A stretch of 39,448 bases of DNA from a virus (lineage: Duplodnaviria > Heunggongvirae > Uroviricota > Caudoviricetes). Location: IMG/VR virus record IMGVR_UViG_2585427754_000011, one strand, 5' to 3'. The position numbers and the translations under genes were made by a program. The notes beneath the pieces were generated by a model. It ran no database searches. It saw only the letters and a list, made by a program, of their open reading frames with translations, and had not been told where the DNA came from. Below, one piece after another: positions 1,055-10,113 of this stretch. The first letter of the stretch is position 1, and the number at the start of each line of letters is the position of its first letter.

Positions 1055-1077
1055 AAAAATGCCCTCCAGTGGAGAGC
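1055..1077 (-). terminator. Hairpin plus T-run between the KAP NTPase gene and int
   Basis: Minus strand reads GCTCTCC-ACT-GGAGGGC followed by ATTTTTT immediately before the int ATG; the stem contains GGAGG, which could double as the int Shine-Dalgarno. Confidence 0.4.
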
Positions 1078-1132
1078 ATTTTTACTGTATATATAACCAG
1101 TGTCAATGTATGAATTTGTATAGCCATACATA

Positions 1133-2464
1133 TCACTGAAGTAAAAAAACTTTTAAAGCATCTTTCACAATATTTGTTGGTTCACCAATACCGCCACCAC
1201 CTTTTAAAAAATGGTATTCACTCATTTCTGCCCATTGTCTTTTTATATTTTCCTCAGCAGGTAAAAGAGATGAGTTTTCAGATAAGTATTTGTAAACTAT
1301 TCCAAATATAGCATATTCATAATTATCTACATTATATTCACTTGTTTGATATGAAAATTTAGATAAACCAAACAATTTCATGATTGATTGAGCATCAACT
1401 TTATCTTCAAGAAAGTTGAGAGCTAACTCTCGGTTAAAAGTGTAGATTATTATCGCTAGAGTCCTGTAATAACAATATCCATAAATATATTTGTTGCTAA
1501 TTTTGTCGCCTGATAGTAGTTGGTATATTTCAACATATCTAGCAAGTGTTTCAACCTCACGTAATGATAATTTTCTACTTTCAATGAACTGTAAGAAAAT
1601 ATCTTCGCTGGCTTCTACTGCAGCGGTCAGCCTTTCAGATTGCTCACATAGCATCATCCAATGATTTTTGGAAGTTAAAGTGTCATTATAATTATCTTCC
1701 TTAAAGGTAACAGGAAGGCTGTATGTAAATTTTATAAATTTGTCAAGATAACGGTTGGAGTCTACAGAAGAGCCATAGATATGATTTATGGATGCTTTTA
1801 GTTGAGTTGTGTTTGCAATTAATAAAAAGTTAATGTTTTTTATATCAAAAACATGTTTTATATTTTCAATAATAGAAATGGCAAAACTAGGCTTACATCT
1901 GTCTAACTCATCTATAATTATTGTTAGTTTACTTTCTCCAGCTAATTTGGTTAGTACTTCTTTTAGAGCAAGAACGTTCTTTTGTGCCTCGATATGATCT
2001 TCTAACAGAGCCTCGATGGTTCCATCGATAGCTGAATTTGCAGCGTCTTTGATAACCTCTTCAAATTCCTCATTAATTTCATCCGCATTTTGTTTTAATA
2101 CCCAACCAGCACCAGCTTTGAGTACAGTCTTAAGTCCGAATCTGAGGGCTGGCAATGCCTTAGATATTAATTCCTTTTTTTCATCGCTATTATATAGAGC
2201 TGCAATTGCGGCCATTATTGTAAGTATGGGAGCATCGTTGTGATCTTCAGTAAAAGCATCTATATAAACTACTTTATGATTGGTCGAGTTTATTTCAATT
2301 AAGGATGCTAACTTTTTTGAAAACTCTGTTTTTCCAGTCCCCCAGTCCCCATCTATGACCATAGGTGAAACAGGAATATTAGACTCTAGCAAACTTATTA
2401 TTTTTTCTGCAATGGCTTTTCTTTTATATTCATCACGTATATCGAAAGTTATATCTGTGCTCAT
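1133..2464 (-). CDS. KAP-family P-loop NTPase (443 aa)
   Basis: Walker A GDWGTGKT and the KAP-type Walker B IIIDELDRC are both present. ATG start confirmed; AT-rich relative to flanking phage genes. Sits 13 nt downstream of the small ORF stop. Confidence 0.8.
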   Translation of the reverse strand: MSTDITFDIRDEYKRKAIAEKIISLLESNIPVSPMVIDGDWGTGKTEFSKKLASLIEINSTNHKVVYIDAFTEDHNDAPILTIMAAIAALYNSDEKKELISKALPALRFGLKTVLKAGAGWVLKQNADEINEEFEEVIKDAANSAIDGTIEALLEDHIEAQKNVLALKEVLTKLAGESKLTIIIDELDRCKPSFAISIIENIKHVFDIKNINFLLIANTTQLKASINHIYGSSVDSNRYLDKFIKFTYSLPVTFKEDNYNDTLTSKNHWMMLCEQSERLTAAVEASEDIFLQFIESRKLSLREVETLARYVEIYQLLSGDKISNKYIYGYCYYRTLAIIIYTFNRELALNFLEDKVDAQSIMKLFGLSKFSYQTSEYNVDNYEYAIFGIVYKYLSENSSLLPAEENIKRQWAEMSEYHFLKGGGGIGEPTNIVKDALKVFLLQ

Positions 2465-2477
2465 TCATATTTTCTTA

Positions 2478-2660
2478 TTATTTGATGCATGTTTTTTTGG
2501 ATTTACTGATGGTTCCATCATTGCAAACAAATTTTCCATCAGAGGTACAGTGAGAGACACCTCCCTTTTTCCCAGAACAAGGATAATTTTTAGCATAGGT
2601 AGTTAGTGGGTTTAATAACAAAGAGCATGATAAAACCACAAAAAAAAACTTACCAAGCAT
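2478..2660 (-). CDS. Small secreted Cys-rich protein (60 aa)
   Basis: N-terminal hydrophobic signal-like segment ([12 protein letters not shown]...TYA), then a ~37-aa mature part with 4 Cys. GGAGG lies 6 nt upstream of the ATG. Stop is 13 nt before the KAP NTPase ATG, suggesting an operon. Confidence 0.55.
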
Positions 2661-2675
2661 AGTTTCCTCCAGGTA

Positions 2676-3245
2676 TTATCTAACATACTTAACTGTTAAG
2701 CTTATAATTTTTCCAATTATTTCAACATCTTCTATCTTGCACTCGAAGGCTCTGTTTCCACCTTCAACGAAAATTCTTCCACCGGGTAAACGAGTGATGT
2801 CGCGGATTGTTATTTCGCCATCAATACTTATTACCCATTTACCATCACGTATATCATCAAATTCTTTATCACAAATAAATTCAGAATTGTTATCTGTGAT
2901 GACAAAAGGTTTTTTAAACGTAGAGGGTAGAAATCCCTTATCAAAAATATAAAAACCGTCTTCCTGCAATGCTCCATCAGACAATAAATATTTTACTACT
3001 TCTATAGTATTTGTATTTGCTGATGCTTGCTTTGAACCATGCCCTGTTGTTAGCCAATTAAGCGAGGTACCCGTTTCAAGGGCGCACTGGATTACCCAAT
3101 CTGCCGGAAAAATATCACGCATATAACGCGTTGCCATGGTGCTCTTAGAAACACCTAAATGATCACAGAGAGCCTGACGGGTACCGAACCCGTATGCTTC
3201 AACCAAACGTTCTATGGCTTTCTTACCGCCGCTATTGAAATCCAC
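2676..3245 (-). CDS. cI: CI-like immunity repressor (phage 186 CI type)
   Basis: Resembles 186 CI as I remember it (EAYGF...HCALETG...LNWLTTGHG) with an HTH-like segment. The ORF-track start at 3332 is a GTG and would overrun the promoter region; I place the start at an internal GTG at 3245 preceded by GGAGG. Confidence 0.75.
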   Translation of the reverse strand: MDFNSGGKKAIERLVEAYGFGTRQALCDHLGVSKSTMATRYMRDIFPADWVIQCALETGTSLNWLTTGHGSKQASANTNTIEVVKYLLSDGALQEDGFYIFDKGFLPSTFKKPFVITDNNSEFICDKEFDDIRDGKWVISIDGEITIRDITRLPGGRIFVEGGNRAFECKIEDVEIIGKIISLTVKYVR

Positions 3246-4175: not shown

Positions 4176-4409
4176 ATGCTGACGAAAGAACCATCATTTG
4201 CATCGCTGCTGGTAAAACAAAGTCCGGCAATGCACTACGGTCACGGCTGGATTTATTTACCTTGTGGGAAAAAGTGGCATCCAAGTTTTGAATTACAACC
4301 CCGGCAACAGGCTTACCGGGGAAGAAATAAAAAGCGATTCCTACAAAGATTTATGGTTAACGTGGCAAACAACCTGCGAACCAAGCGAAAAGTTTTTCTT
4401 GGAAGCTGA
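4176..4409 (+). CDS. Hypothetical early protein; its N-terminal coding segment is duplicated at 4996-5055
   Basis: ORF MLTKEPSFASLLVKQSPAMHYGHGW... overlaps the start of the duplicated 60-bp segment; the 3' part overlaps the antisense gene and may be non-functional. Confidence 0.3.
   Translation: MLTKEPSFASLLVKQSPAMHYGHGWIYLPCGKKWHPSFELQPRQQAYRGRNKKRFLQRFMVNVANNLRTKRKVFLGS
4193..4253. repeat. Direct repeat copy 1 (~60 bp, 2 mismatches against 4996-5055)
   Basis: atcatttgcatcgctgctggtaaaacaaagtccggcaatgcactacggtcacggctggat; weaker similarity continues ~35 bp further. Confidence 0.85.
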
Positions 4410-4815
4410 GGTTTACATCGTCAACCCGACCACAGGCAATAGCAGCTCTTTTGTAGGCAGGGTTTAACAAAGATCCGAATGTTGTGGAGTCAGAGTGATG
4501 CAAAGCTTTCAATTTTTGTGCAATGAACTGTGGAGACAATTCATCCTCGGCGTAAAGCAACTCACCATATTGTCGGCTTTGTACGCTTGCTCGTTCCGCA
4601 ATAATAGCTGGTTGCCATACAAGTTGGATTGTTGCGATTACAACAACAGGAAAAGCGAACAACCATTCCAGACCTGTATTAGCAAATACAGCTGTTCCGC
4701 TTATAAGTTGGATTGCTGTCATTAATTTATCAGCTCGACCATGGAACGTTGCTGTCATTAGTTCAAGGTAATAACAGTAGTGTAATTGGAAGTATTCGGA
4801 GCTTTGTTTAGTCAT
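4357..4815 (-). CDS. Predicted 2-TM membrane protein (152 aa), antisense to the early operon
   Basis: ATG start with AGGAA upstream; two hydrophobic stretches (LMTAIQLISGTAVFANTGL, WLFAFPVVVIATIQLVW) followed by a soluble C-terminal part. Hairpin ccccgg...ccgggg at ~4292-4316 lies downstream. Confidence 0.55.
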   Translation of the reverse strand: MTKQSSEYFQLHYCYYLELMTATFHGRADKLMTAIQLISGTAVFANTGLEWLFAFPVVVIATIQLVWQPAIIAERASVQSRQYGELLYAEDELSPQFIAQKLKALHHSDSTTFGSLLNPAYKRAAIACGRVDDVNLSFQEKLFAWFAGCLPR

Positions 4816-6262: not shown

Positions 6263-7116
6263 GCACCATCCTGAAATGGGCGGGAAATAAAACCGCAATT
6301 ATGTCCGAACTGAAAAAACACCTTCCTGCTGGCCCGCGACTGGTTGAACCTTTCGCGGGTTCCTGTGCTGTGATGATGGAGACGGATTATCCCAGCTATC
6401 TGGTTGCGGATATTAATCCTGATTTAATCAACCTCTATAAAAAGGTTGCCGCTGATTGTGAATCATTTATATCTCGCGCCAGAGTTTTATTTAAGGAAGC
6501 AAACAGGGAGGTGGCTTATTACAACATAAGGCAGGAGTTTAATTACTCAACTGAAATTACTGATTTCATGAAAGCGGTATATTTCCTGTATCTCAATCGT
6601 CACGGTTACCGTGGTTTATGTCGCTATAACAAGAGCGGGCATTTCAACATTCCCTACGGTAATTATAAAAATCCGTATTTCCCTGAAAAAGAAATTCGCG
6701 CATTTGCAGAAAAAGCCCAGCGGGCAACGTTTATCTGCGCCAGCTTTGATGAAACGCTGGCGATGTTGAAGGCGGGGGATGTGGTGTATTGCGATCCGCC
6801 GTATGACGGCACGTTTTCCGGTTATCACACTGACGGCTTCACTGAAGATGACCAGTATCACCTGGCATCCGTTCTTGAACATCGGTCATCAGAAGGACAT
6901 CCGGTCATTGTTTCTAACAGTGACACATCCCTGATCCGTTCGCTGTATCGCAATTTTACTCACCACTACATCAAGGCAAAACGCAGCATCGGCGTAGCAG
7001 CTGGTGAGAGTAAATCTGCAACAGAAATCATCGCTGTTTCTGGGGCGTGCTGCTGGGTGGGATTTGATCCTTCGCGTGGCGTGGATAGTTCAGCCGTGTA
7101 CGGAGTGCGTGCATGA
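6259..7116 (+). CDS. dam: DNA adenine methyltransferase (Dam-like)
   Basis: ILKWAGNK N-terminus, FAGS, and DPPY catalytic motif. ATG at 6259 with GGAGGTG upstream. Confidence 0.85.
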
Positions 7117-9527
7117 GCCATGCTGATATGAACAACTGCAGCGGCTTTAACGAGGCCGCCGCAGCATTCTCATGGAACAGCCCGAAAAAGGCTATTAACC
7201 CTTATCTGGACCCGGCGGAAGTTGCGCCGGTTTCTGCGCTTTCAAACCTGATCACTCTGTACGCTGCCGATAACGAGCAGGAACAACTGCGCCGCGAGGC
7301 ACTGAGTGATCAGGTCTGGGAGCGTTATTTCTTTAATGAATCCCGTGATCCTGTCCAGCGCGAAATGGAGCAGGATAAGCTCATTAGCCGGGCAAAGTTG
7401 GCGCATGAGCAGCAGCGTTTTAACCCGGACATGGTCATTCTGGCAGACGTCAGCGTCCAGCCCTCCCATATCAGCAAGCCGCTGATGCAACGTATTGAAT
7501 ACTTCAGCAGCTTGGGCAGGCCAAAGGCTTATTCCCGCTATTTACGTGAGACGATTAAGCCATGTCTGGAACGACTGGAGCATGTACGCGACAGCCAGCT
7601 ATCTGCATCTTTTCGTTTTATGGCAAGCCATGTAGGGCTGGACGGCCTGCTGATTCTGCCTGAAATGAGTCAGGATCAGGTGAAACGCCTGTCTACCCTT
7701 GTCGCTGCGCATATGAGCATGTGCCTTGATGCAGCTTGTGGTGATTTGTATGCCACCGATGACGTTAAGCCGGAAGAAATCCGCAAGACATGGGAAAAGG
7801 TGGCAGCGGAAACCCTGCGTCTGGATGTCATCCCGCCTGCGTTTGAGCAACTCCGTCGGAAAAGAAACCGCCGTAAACCCGTGCCCTATGAACTCATTCC
7901 GGGTTCGCTGGCGCGTATGTTGTGCGCCGACTGGTGGTACCGGAAATTATGGAAAATGCGTTGCGAATGGCGGGAAGAGCAGTTGCGTGCTGTCTGCTTG
8001 GTCAGCAAAAAAGCATCTCCCTATGTCAGCTATGAAGCCGTGATGCATAAACGTGAGCAGCGCCGCAAGTCACTGGAGTTTTTCCGTTCTCATGAACTGG
8101 TGAACGAAGAGGGCGACACGCTGGATATGGAAGACGTGGTAAACGCCAGCAGCAGCAACCCGGCGCACCGCCGCAATGAGATGATGGCCTGTGTTAAAGG
8201 TCTGGAGCTTATCGCGGAAATGCGCGGTGACTGCGCCGTTTTCTACACCATTACCTGTCCGTCACGTTTCCATTCCACGCTCAATAACGGCAGACCAAAC
8301 CCAACCTGGACAAATGCGACGGTAAGACAAAGCAGCGATTATCTGGTCGGCATGTTTGCTGCATTTCGTAAGGCGATGCACAAAGCCGGGTTGCGCTGGT
8401 ATGGCGTGCGGGTGGCTGAGCCGCATCATGACGGTACAGTTCACTGGCACCTGTTGTGTTTCATGCGCAAAAAAGACCGCCGCGCCATTACTGCATTGTT
8501 GCGTAAGTTTGCCATCCGTGAAGACCGCGAGGAACTGGGTAATAACACTGGTCCACGCTTTAAATCTGAGCTGATAAACCCGCGCAAAGGAACGCCGACA
8601 AGCTACATCGCGAAATACATCAGTAAGAACATTGACGGGCGTGGTCTGGCTGGCGAGATCAGCAAGGAAACGGGTAAATCCCTGCGTGATAACGCTGAAT
8701 ACGTTAATGCCTGGGCGTCTCTGCATCGTGTTCAGCAATTCCGCTTCTTTGGCATTCCGGGGCGTCAGGCTTACCGTGAACTGCGATTGCTGGCTGGTCA
8801 GGCGGCAAGGCAACAGGGGGACAAAAAAGCAGGTGCGCCGGTACTGGATAACCCGCGCCTTGATGCCATCCTGGCTGCTGCTGATGCTGGTTGTTTTGCC
8901 ACCTACATCATGAAGCAGGGCGGCGTACTAGTTCCCCGCAAATATCACCTCATCAGAACCGCTTATGAAATCAACGAAGAGCCGACCGCCTATGGCGATC
9001 ACGGCATTCGTATTTATGGCATCTGGTCACCCATTGCAGAGGGCAAGATCTGCACTCATGCAGTGAAGTGGAAAATGGTTCGTAAAGCCGTTGACGTTCA
9101 GGAGGCGGCAGCCGACCAGGGCGCTTGCGCCCCTTGGACTCGTGGCAATAACTGTCCCCTTGCTGAAAATTTGTACCAACAAGGGAAAGACAAATCAGCT
9201 GATGGAGATACCAGAACGGATATCACCCGCATGGATGACAAGGAGTTGCACGATTACCTGCACAGTATGAGCAAAAAAGAGCGCCGGGAACTGGCTGCAA
9301 GGTTACGCCTGGTGAAACCGAAACGGCGTAAAGACTACAAACAGCGAATTACAGACCATCAGCGACAGCAGCTCGTCTATGAACTGGAGTCCAGAGGATT
9401 TAATGGCAGCGAGAAAGAGGTCGATTTACTCCTTCGCGGCGGCAGTATTCCGTCAGGAGCAGGCCTGCGTATCTTCTATCGGAACCAGCGTTTGCAGGAA
9501 GATGATAAGTGGCGGAACCTGTATTAA
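7113..9527 (+). CDS. A: Replication initiation protein A (rolling-circle HUH endonuclease, P2 gpA type)
   Basis: 804 aa with HUH-like TVHWHLL and a YIAKYISKN tyrosine motif; start overlaps the dam stop (ATGA). Confidence 0.9.
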
Positions 9528-9619: not shown

Positions 9620-9639
9620 TACTGTAAATATAAACAGTG
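9620..9639. promoter_or_regulatory. LexA box (SOS operator)
   Basis: TACTGTAAATATAAACAGTG fits CTGT-N8-ACAG; overlaps a TATACT -10-like hexamer upstream of the tum-like ORF. Confidence 0.6.
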
Positions 9640-9680: not shown

Positions 9681-9869
9681 ATGCAGGACTATTTTTTGGA
9701 GTCTTTGAAGCTCCAGCGCATTGATTTTTTTCTTAAGCTTGTAGCGGCTAGTGAGTGTAGTGATGAAGAGAAGGGGCTGGCTCTGCAGTGGGTTTCTGAA
9801 TTGACTGATGAACTCATGGCAAAAATCAGAAGCCACGAATACAACCGCTCAATGGATGTCATCAGCTGA
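9681..9869 (+). CDS. Putative Tum-like antirepressor (62 aa)
   Basis: First ORF after the LexA box, strong AGGAGG RBS; position matches 186 tum. No sequence-level confirmation. Confidence 0.4.
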   Translation: MQDYFLESLKLQRIDFFLKLVAASECSDEEKGLALQWVSELTDELMAKIRSHEYNRSMDVIS

Positions 9870-9879
9870 GGTGACTTTT

Positions 9880-10113
9880 ATGCGCATTGAAATAATGATC
9901 GATAAAGAGCAGAAGATTAGCCAGTCTACCCTGGACGCCCTTGAATCCGAGCTTTACCGCAATCTGCGCCCCCTGTATCCCAAAACGGTAATTCGTATCC
10001 GCAAAGGTAGCTCTAACGGTGTGGAACTTACCGGATTGCAACTGGACGAAGAAAGAAAACAAGTGATGAAAATTATGCAGAAGGTGTGGGAAGACGACAG
10101 CTGGCTGCATTAA
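9880..10113 (+). CDS. DinI-like protein
   Basis: MRIEIMIDKEQK...WEDDSWL resembles E. coli DinI (MRIEVTIAK...WESADDWF) as recalled; GAGGTGA RBS. Confidence 0.7.
   Translation: MRIEIMIDKEQKISQSTLDALESELYRNLRPLYPKTVIRIRKGSSNGVELTGLQLDEERKQVMKIMQKVWEDDSWLH

Follow-up and report, generated by a model that had tools for sequence, protein, structure and literature searches.

The 39,448-nucleotide (nt) stretch analysed here (the window, to whose positions all coordinates refer) is DNA of a 186-like (Peduoviridae) prophage from Escherichia coli, and it carries two genes between the repressor gene cI and the integrase gene int, one for a KAP-family nucleoside triphosphatase (NTPase) and one for a small secreted protein. 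The genes lie along the minus strand in the order cI (2676-3245), the first gene of the lysogenic operon, which encodes a 186-type CI repressor of 189 aa (Pfam Phage_CI_repr and Phage_CI_C); a 60-aa open reading frame (ORF; 2478-2660) for a YdcA-family predicted secreted mini-protein; the 443-aa ORF of the soluble KAP NTPase (1133-2464); and int (1-1053), which encodes a tyrosine integrase of 350 aa from the RefSeq start (Pfam Int_N and Phage_integrase). For cI, the RefSeq annotation of an identical prophage takes a GTG at 3245 as the start, and the mechanical ORF reaches 3332. The apl/cox and cII genes lie on the plus strand, divergent from the cI operon. The spacers are short, with 15 nt between cI and ydcA and 13 nt between the ydcA stop codon and the KAP ATG, and the GC content of the two genes (KAP, 0.327; ydcA, 0.339) is far below that of int (0.487) and of the whole window (0.494). 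Because cI and int adjoin directly in phage 186, where the slot is empty, the stretch with KAP and ydcA is extra cargo. A previous interpretation made from the letters alone (the sequence-only reading) had described a KAP NTPase and a signal-peptide-bearing protein with four cysteines, co-oriented with cI and int, tightly packed after cI and AT-rich, as cargo acquired at a position where prophages carry defence genes; the ORFs, their spacing, orientation and composition were all found as described, and the empty slot of phage 186 supports the view of acquired cargo. The window locus recurs at 99.9% identity in 34 complete E. coli genomes, including those of strains NC101 and NGF-1, and in L001, the one locus examined in this respect, the prophage adjoins rcdA.

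The hidden Markov model (HMM) search that had been proposed as a check gave a clear assignment. The NTPase matched Pfam KAP_NTPase (PF07693) with 182.5 bits (E = 1.4e-53, cut-off 20), residues 15-316 aligning to positions 1-291 of the 293-position profile. Both motifs cited earlier are present, with the Walker A sequence GDWGTGKT at residues 38-46 and the Walker B sequence IIIDELDRC at residues 182-190, and in an alignment of 40 diverse homologues Gly42, Gly44, Lys45, Asp185, Glu186 and Asp188 were invariant. The protein consists of an NTPase core (aa ~1-92 and 176-317), a helical hairpin (aa 93-175) and a hypervariable C-terminal helical domain (aa 318-443). Among the 40 homologues, the core was the best-kept part, with a mean pairwise identity of 0.51-0.62, followed by the lid (0.38) and the C-terminal 125 residues (0.22). 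Immune sensors usually show this pattern, in which a conserved engine is joined to a recognition domain that evolves fast. The AlphaFold2 (AF2) model, with a predicted local distance difference test (pLDDT) value of 80.4 and a predicted template modelling (pTM) score of 0.76, shows an NTPase core of the additional-strand, catalytic-glutamate (ASCE) class, a lid and a C-terminal helical domain, with the hairpin inserted between Walker A and Walker B as a long soluble element that is modelled with low confidence at residues 109-151.

Classical KAP proteins have transmembrane helices associated with the NTPase domain, and PifA is a founding member of the family. No transmembrane helix was found in the NTPase, where the highest mean hydropathy over 19 residues was 0.93, nor was a signal peptide found; since PifA also lacks transmembrane helices, their absence does not exclude KAP membership. 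Domain searches recognised no nuclease, protease or other effector domain in the NTPase, and a Pfam scan detected no DNA-binding domain. Among solved structures, the fold closest to the NTPase was that of RdrA from the RADAR system. When the Protein Data Bank (PDB) was searched with a sequence profile of the KAP alignment, nothing was returned at an E value of 0.01 or better, and a BFVD structure search returned only generic AAA+ and clamp-loader matches with template modelling scores of 0.2-0.35.

In PADLOC, the NTPase matched the model PDLC04956 (PDC-S20) over its full length (E = 2.4e-171, 569 bits, residues 1-441 on positions 1-447 of 450), and relatives from every genomic context matched the same model at 1e-154 to 1e-184. 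By these profile matches, the NTPase belongs to the KAP family and to the PDC-S20 candidate set of PADLOC. The PDC systems are a set of 145 candidates that were nominated by 'guilt-by-embedding' within BREX, DISARM, type I restriction-modification (RM) and Hma loci (Payne et al., bioRxiv 10.1101/2024.01.29.577857).

The 60-aa protein passed the NCBIfam model NF007463 (YdcA-type) with 108.8 bits against a cut-off of 93 and matched phrog_6000 (E = 2e-32); its homologues carry PF27300 YdcA, and RefSeq names it 'YdcA family protein'. The signal-peptide check that had been suggested for it revealed a hydrophobic segment at the N-terminus, which is a Sec-type signal peptide of variable sequence whose probable cleavage after TYA23 would leave a mature domain of 37 aa. 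Mature cysteines Cys28, Cys38, Cys46 and Cys58 are invariant or nearly so across the YdcA family, and a mature core of 35 residues is almost invariant. A fifth cysteine, Cys12, lies inside the signal peptide; a lipoprotein reading of the protein, based on VLSC at residues 9-12, was rejected since Cys12 is not conserved in the family. AF2 predicts a signal helix and a small beta hairpin. The YdcA profile matched chain AN of PDB entry 7muc, from the outer-membrane complex of the Legionella Dot/Icm type IV secretion system, with E = 3e-4, a score to which the signal peptide contributes in part, and the two share the motif CS-K-GG-x-x-C...G-x-x-VCN-[DN]G-x-S. Chain AN of 7muc/7mud was also the top Foldseek match of the 60-aa protein, at a weak E value of 0.6 and with 37-39% identity over 33-35 residues. 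Chain AN itself is a Cys-rich protein of 124 aa, deposited as 'Neurogenic locus notch protein homolog', in which the motif seems to be present twice. The mini-protein is probably periplasmic with two disulfides, and an envelope-associated role there is plausible; an exclusion function would be speculation. A literature search for the function of YdcA of E. coli K-12 found nothing useful.

Further homologues of ydcA were found in phages of Moraxella, Acinetobacter and Pseudomonas as well as in chromosomes and on plasmids. Haemophilus phage HP2 (L195, NC_003315) carries at 2486-2668 on the minus strand an unannotated 60-aa YdcA-like ORF whose ATG overlaps the cI stop codon, and phage S2 has one as well. 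In HP2, it is followed by orf1(S), which encodes a 254-aa protein with a signal peptide and no PADLOC or Pfam match, and then by int, so that the same layout of cI, ydcA, cargo and int appears in a distant genus of Peduoviridae.

Comparison of the window with L021, a relative that has no KAP gene, revealed how the cargo is bounded. By blastn, positions 3218-2492 aligned at 86% identity and positions 1141-1 at 98.7%, and the junction sequences show that a 1350-bp segment (1142-2491, minus strand) stands in place of a 123-bp spacer of the KAP-less relatives. Its left break lies in the last codons of ydcA, where the C-terminus reads ...KKTCIK here and ...KKICTKNSR in the relatives, and its right break lies 8 nt before the KAP stop codon. 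The 123-nt spacer is common to 74 of 75 relatives; it has no similarity to KAP alleles and contains no KAP remnant, and both insertion and deletion are compatible with this arrangement. The integrase is at least 98% identical (tblastn) between prophages that differ by 14-45% in their cI, ydcA and KAP alleles, which points to exchange of an immunity-plus-cargo module by homologous recombination among 186-like prophages.

The contents of the slot between cI and int vary widely. It is empty in phage 186 and elsewhere holds ydcA, ydcA with KAP (in two alleles), KAP alone, or KAP preceded by a gene for a protein of 160, 329 or 341 aa, with ydcA and orf1 in HP2. Apart from ydcA, the position upstream of KAP is thus occupied by nothing in L007 (31 nt from cI to KAP), by the 160-aa protein in the Yersinia-type L011 (5494-5976), by the 329-aa protein in L139 (4003-4992) and by the 341-aa protein in L140 (3752-4777). 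The 160-aa protein weakly matched the C-terminal end of PADLOC PDC-S48 (E = 2.3e-4) and had no significant Pfam domain; the 341-aa protein has predicted transmembrane helices and gave only two sub-threshold Pfam matches (TPR and Troponin); the 329-aa protein had no PADLOC or Pfam match. With conserved flanks and exchangeable contents, the cI-int slot is, on this comparison of alleles, a hotspot for cargo and defence genes.

Directly before the int AUG lies a strong hairpin (1055-1083, minus strand; dG -19.2 kcal/mol, z -6.8), followed by a run of six U residues and the AUG itself. The sequence-only reading had assigned a hairpin and T-run to the cargo as its own. The hairpin is real, and yet it lies in the int-proximal segment (1-1141) that L021 shares, is present in that KAP-less prophage, and is kept with different stems and compensatory changes in L002 and the Yersinia-type L011. 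By this comparison it is a feature of the phage backbone and not of the cargo, and it is the probable terminator of the cI-ydcA-KAP transcript. Neither the cI-ydcA nor the ydcA-KAP spacer contains a convincing terminator. A scan of the region for promoters returned 8 sites against 10.9 expected by chance, and we claim no internal cargo promoter.

One site of that scan overlaps the hairpin. The promoter-like sequence TTGACA-17-AAAAAT (1078-1106, minus strand; 10 of 12 matches) overlaps a LexA-box-like site (1083-1102) with three mismatches to the consensus, for which zero occurrences are expected by chance, and in L002 and the Yersinia-type L011 the corresponding position holds a perfect CTGT-N8-ACAG; the module is absent from phage 186. 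The putative -10 element lies within the 5' arm of the hairpin. Transcripts that read through from cI would therefore fold into the terminator, whereas an int transcript under LexA control would not form it. This arrangement of motifs points to SOS control of int, and to its uncoupling from the cI operon, in this lineage. Elsewhere in the window, a second LexA-box-like site (9620-9639, three mismatches) follows closely on the replication gene A (7113-9527), ahead of a 62-aa ORF (9681-9869) and a DinI-like 101-aa ORF (9808-10113); phage 186 has a LexA-controlled tum (p95) operon, to which this region probably corresponds.

More than 1,300 KAP homologues were found at an E value of 1e-5 or better among the scored candidates, mostly in Enterobacterales and Vibrionaceae, and the genomic context was recorded for the 80 best IMG/VR loci. 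Of these, 28 occupy the slot between cI and int in 186-like prophages, 47 stand antisense beside the Q antiterminator gene of lambdoid prophages, and five could not be placed. In the lambdoid loci (L013-L018 and L141-L190), from Citrobacter, Cronobacter and related hosts, the KAP gene stands beside Q with DUF968 beyond, and holin or lysis genes were detected on its other side in 11 of the 47 lambdoid IMG/VR loci. The Q-adjacent site is a classical moron position of lambdoid phages. Distant homologues (~41-43% identity) occur in chromosomal defence islands, beside a type I RM system in L197 and, in L198, amid genes for a type I S subunit, an AAA_15/21 ATPase, a UvrD-PDDEXK helicase, DUF4145 and VWA-PP2C-kinase proteins. 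A third such homologue, in Photobacterium, adjoins DUF4238, and an ORF of 223 aa that had no PADLOC or Pfam match overlaps the KAP stop codon in Photobacterium (L019, 6347-7018). Among 5426 complete E. coli genomes, 123 carry the family by blastn (~2%), and no deposited phage genome contains a close homologue. The NTPase family has no conserved partner gene, its upstream neighbour in the cI-int slot being any of those listed above and its neighbours in lambdoid and island contexts being others again. This distribution is, as far as gene neighbourhoods tell, the profile of an accessory, horizontally exchanged and defence-associated gene.

The distribution of ydcA is equally independent. Among 76 IMG/VR loci that reach int and encode a CI 87-100% identical to that of the window, 74 have the order cI-ydcA-int without KAP and two have KAP; the most frequent ydcA allele, for which an assembly collection has 19,603 indexed blocks, lay alone between cI and int in all eight places read. 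Conversely, ydcA precedes KAP in only 10 of the 80 KAP loci and is missing from the other 70. The claim of one system composed of the NTPase and a secreted peptide is not supported by these counts: by their separate occurrence, the two genes are most likely two separate morons in the lysogenic operon. Nor is the pair unrecognised, as had been stated, given that the peptide is a member of the YdcA family (NF007463) and the NTPase is a single-gene candidate of PADLOC. Database hits placing both genes in a known system, which the sequence-only reading had named as evidence that would count against it, were found for the NTPase, as a candidate only, and not otherwise.

Taken together, these findings are best explained if the KAP NTPase is a single-gene anti-phage defence in which the NTPase acts as a sensor expressed in the lysogen, and we regard this as probable, though well short of certain. 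Any particular output of the NTPase is much less certain. The KAP gene would be transcribed with cI from one or more lysogenic promoters, as synteny with phage 186 suggests, and its product would hence be present in every lysogen; the transcript would end at the hairpin before int. The hypervariable C-terminal domain, perhaps together with the inserted helical hairpin, could recognise a product of the infecting phage, and the conserved NTPase core might then undergo an NTP-dependent conformational or oligomeric change like that of the ring-forming RdrA or of AAA+ proteins. By analogy with PifA, infection would be blocked, most probably abortively, by consumption of NTP or by perturbation of a membrane or complex, outputs that are favoured because no effector domain is present. 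The YdcA protein, whose gene usually follows cI in this lineage and in HP2, would work independently, plausibly at the envelope.

Several points weigh against this explanation. The PDC systems are described as predictions only, by their source (bioRxiv 10.1101/2024.01.29.577857) and by later users, and a full-text literature search found no mention of 'PDC-S20'. With no recognisable effector in the NTPase, its downstream step is drawn by analogy. No pL-like promoter rose above the threshold of the promoter scan, so co-transcription with cI leans on synteny. Finally, ydcA and KAP may be functionally coupled to some degree in those lineages where diverged alleles of the two stand side by side.

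A more elaborate version of the defence explanation seems to us unlikely as a whole. It takes the cI operon as a layered immunity cassette of three independent parts, namely CI, a secreted YdcA that would act as a superinfection-exclusion factor at the level of the envelope, and a minimal, effector-less KAP NTPase that would abort infection alone, with int uncoupled by the LexA-controlled promoter set in the operon terminator. As parts of the same joint proposal, YdcA would be a new kind of exclusion factor, coupled to CI, conserved from HP2 to the E. coli 186-like prophages and related to the Cys-rich Dot/Icm component, and the NTPase would use a new KAP mechanism, for example trigger-induced ring assembly with runaway NTP hydrolysis.

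Slightly less likely still is a reading of the KAP gene as a passenger, neutral or selfish, that recombination among 186-like prophages has carried along; it would be a toxin-like gene, an addiction module or a factor for lysogenic conversion that has no connection with phages. The AT-rich foreign composition, the mosaic junctions and the low prevalence of ~2% in E. coli genomes would fit such a passenger, but the KAP ORF is intact and at least 99.7% identical in 34 independent complete genomes, its catalytic motifs are invariant in the 40 diverse homologues, and the gene repeatedly adjoins known defence genes.

We consider it improbable, too, that the secreted Cys-rich peptide and the KAP NTPase form one two-gene system, with the peptide as sensor, signal or antitoxin, for instance. 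Their spacing is tight (13 nt in the window, 11 nt in a 71%-identical allele); the ydcA-KAP adjacency recurs in four diverged allele pairs (the window type, the L118 type, L122 and L128) with spacers of 11-13 nt; and, with the left recombination break inside ydcA, the donor too carried ydcA ahead of KAP. We retain this explanation, at its low probability, solely for the recurrence of the adjacency in these four pairs. Against it stand the occurrence counts given above, which hold for KAP without ydcA in the same cI-int slot also, the ydcA homologues that stand alone in HP2, other phages, plasmids and chromosomes, and the fact that PADLOC models the NTPase family as a single-gene candidate. The predicted compartments of the two proteins also differ because the NTPase has no transmembrane segment or signal peptide, and the near-invariant mature domain of YdcA beside the hypervariable C-terminal domain of KAP gives no sign of co-evolution. 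A role in the phage life cycle or in competition between mobile elements, as a replication or lysogeny factor like ORC/Cdc6/DnaA or by targeting P4-type satellites, is just as improbable, as KAP is absent from phage 186 and most of its close relatives, occurs antisense in the unrelated lambdoid slot and in non-phage defence islands, and has no detected DNA-binding domain.

The cargo is therefore real and plausibly defensive, and its NTPase is a catalogued candidate rather than part of an unrecognised two-gene system. If the NTPase protects against phages, the PDC-S20 candidate would become a validated system, and at 443 aa, soluble and with no recognisable effector, it would rank among the smallest KAP defence proteins and lend itself to the study of how PifA, QatA, RdrA and other KAP NTPases sense and block phages. 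An identical prophage in NC101 and NGF-1, which are widely used mouse-gut E. coli strains, provides natural lysogens at hand. This KAP gene is exchanged both in the interval between cI and int of 186-like prophages in E. coli and in the lambdoid slot next to Q, and the YdcA-type mini-protein is a widespread repressor-linked prophage gene that deserves a test of its own. Specialists will not be surprised by the finding, prophage-borne NTPase defence candidates in hotspots being now commonplace.

Other possible cargo was seen outside the cI-int slot. A 152-aa ORF on the minus strand (4357-4815) is embedded antisense in the early lytic operon, and RefSeq places a Fil-family gene on either side of it in the identical prophage L001; the ORF matches phrog_6315 (E = 4e-76), has no Pfam, PADLOC or NCBIfam match, and may be another moron. 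Some relatives carry extra genes between int and the rcdA flank, namely one for a 327-aa DUF4917 protein (L028, 5508-6491) and an 89-aa ORF (L022, 5471-5740; L008, 7971-8240). The att side of int is thus a second cargo position in relatives of the window prophage.

Variable cargo between a conserved repressor and integrase has precedents in related phages. A cI-int hotspot is known in K139-like, P2-related Vibrio phages (Rousset et al. 2022, PMC9122126), and in P2-like phages the integrase-primase region accounts for 8% of P2 defence systems, with KAP_NTPase among the unclassified P2 genes (2026 preprint). Neither paper describes the corresponding slot between cI and int in 186-like prophages of E. 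coli, or reports this KAP family from it. The literature found on KAP defence in E. coli prophages was limited to a study of Enterococcus and metagenome KAP proteins, work on Tmn and the papers on P2 and P4 hotspots.

Among known KAP systems, PDC-S20 resembles the NTPase most closely, having the same single-gene architecture and relatives located within or next to defence loci, those of type I RM included; no difference in sequence separates the two, and residence in cI-int and Q-adjacent prophage slots was not found described for it. QatA shares the KAP-type ATPase, and its PADLOC HMM partially matched the NTPase, in the N-terminal NTPase region only (1.5e-11), but identity with QatA was rejected given a score of 41.3 bits (8e-11) on NCBIfam NF041923 against a cut-off of 600, neighbours that are cI, ydcA and int, and no QatB, QatC or QatD gene nearby. 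RdrA of RADAR was likewise rejected, with no RdrA model match in PADLOC and no adjacent RdrB-like gene; RdrA (PDB 8fnt and 8fnu) is ~790 aa long, works with the RdrB adenosine deaminase and is 12-16% identical to the NTPase. Tmn, of the YobI family, is recognised by two transmembrane helices inserted in the P-loop domain, and the NTPase, with no transmembrane helix and no match to a tmn model at an E value of 0.1 or better, is not of this type.

Two further systems are single proteins with experimental support. KAP defence proteins from Enterococcus and gut metagenomes, EF_KAP among them, have been experimentally validated, and protection by EF_KAP depends on its Walker B motif (PMC12632615). 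EF_KAP resembles the NTPase as a single protein with a KAP NTPase domain found on mobile-element hotspots, and differs from it by an effector region of 322 aa and two N-terminal transmembrane helices. The other system, 'Reve', comes from a P4 hotspot and consists of one ATPase/KAP gene, which gives E. coli protection (bioRxiv 10.64898/2026.02.27.708500); it was chosen among genes unseen by PADLOC and DefenseFinder, its KAP domain was recognised by HHpred only, and the comparison with the NTPase is by description only. The precedent used here for the mode of action is PifA, which provides the Pif exclusion of T7 by the F plasmid and is likewise a KAP NTPase without transmembrane helices on a mobile element. 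PifA acts as a single protein in abortive infection, for which depolarisation and nucleotide leakage have been reported (PMC13001434). The NTPase is not PifA itself, since in PADLOC only residues 11-252 align, to positions 17-255 of a 720-position profile (E = 7e-16). The large C-terminal part of PifA has no counterpart in the NTPase, which has a variable domain of 125 aa of its own.

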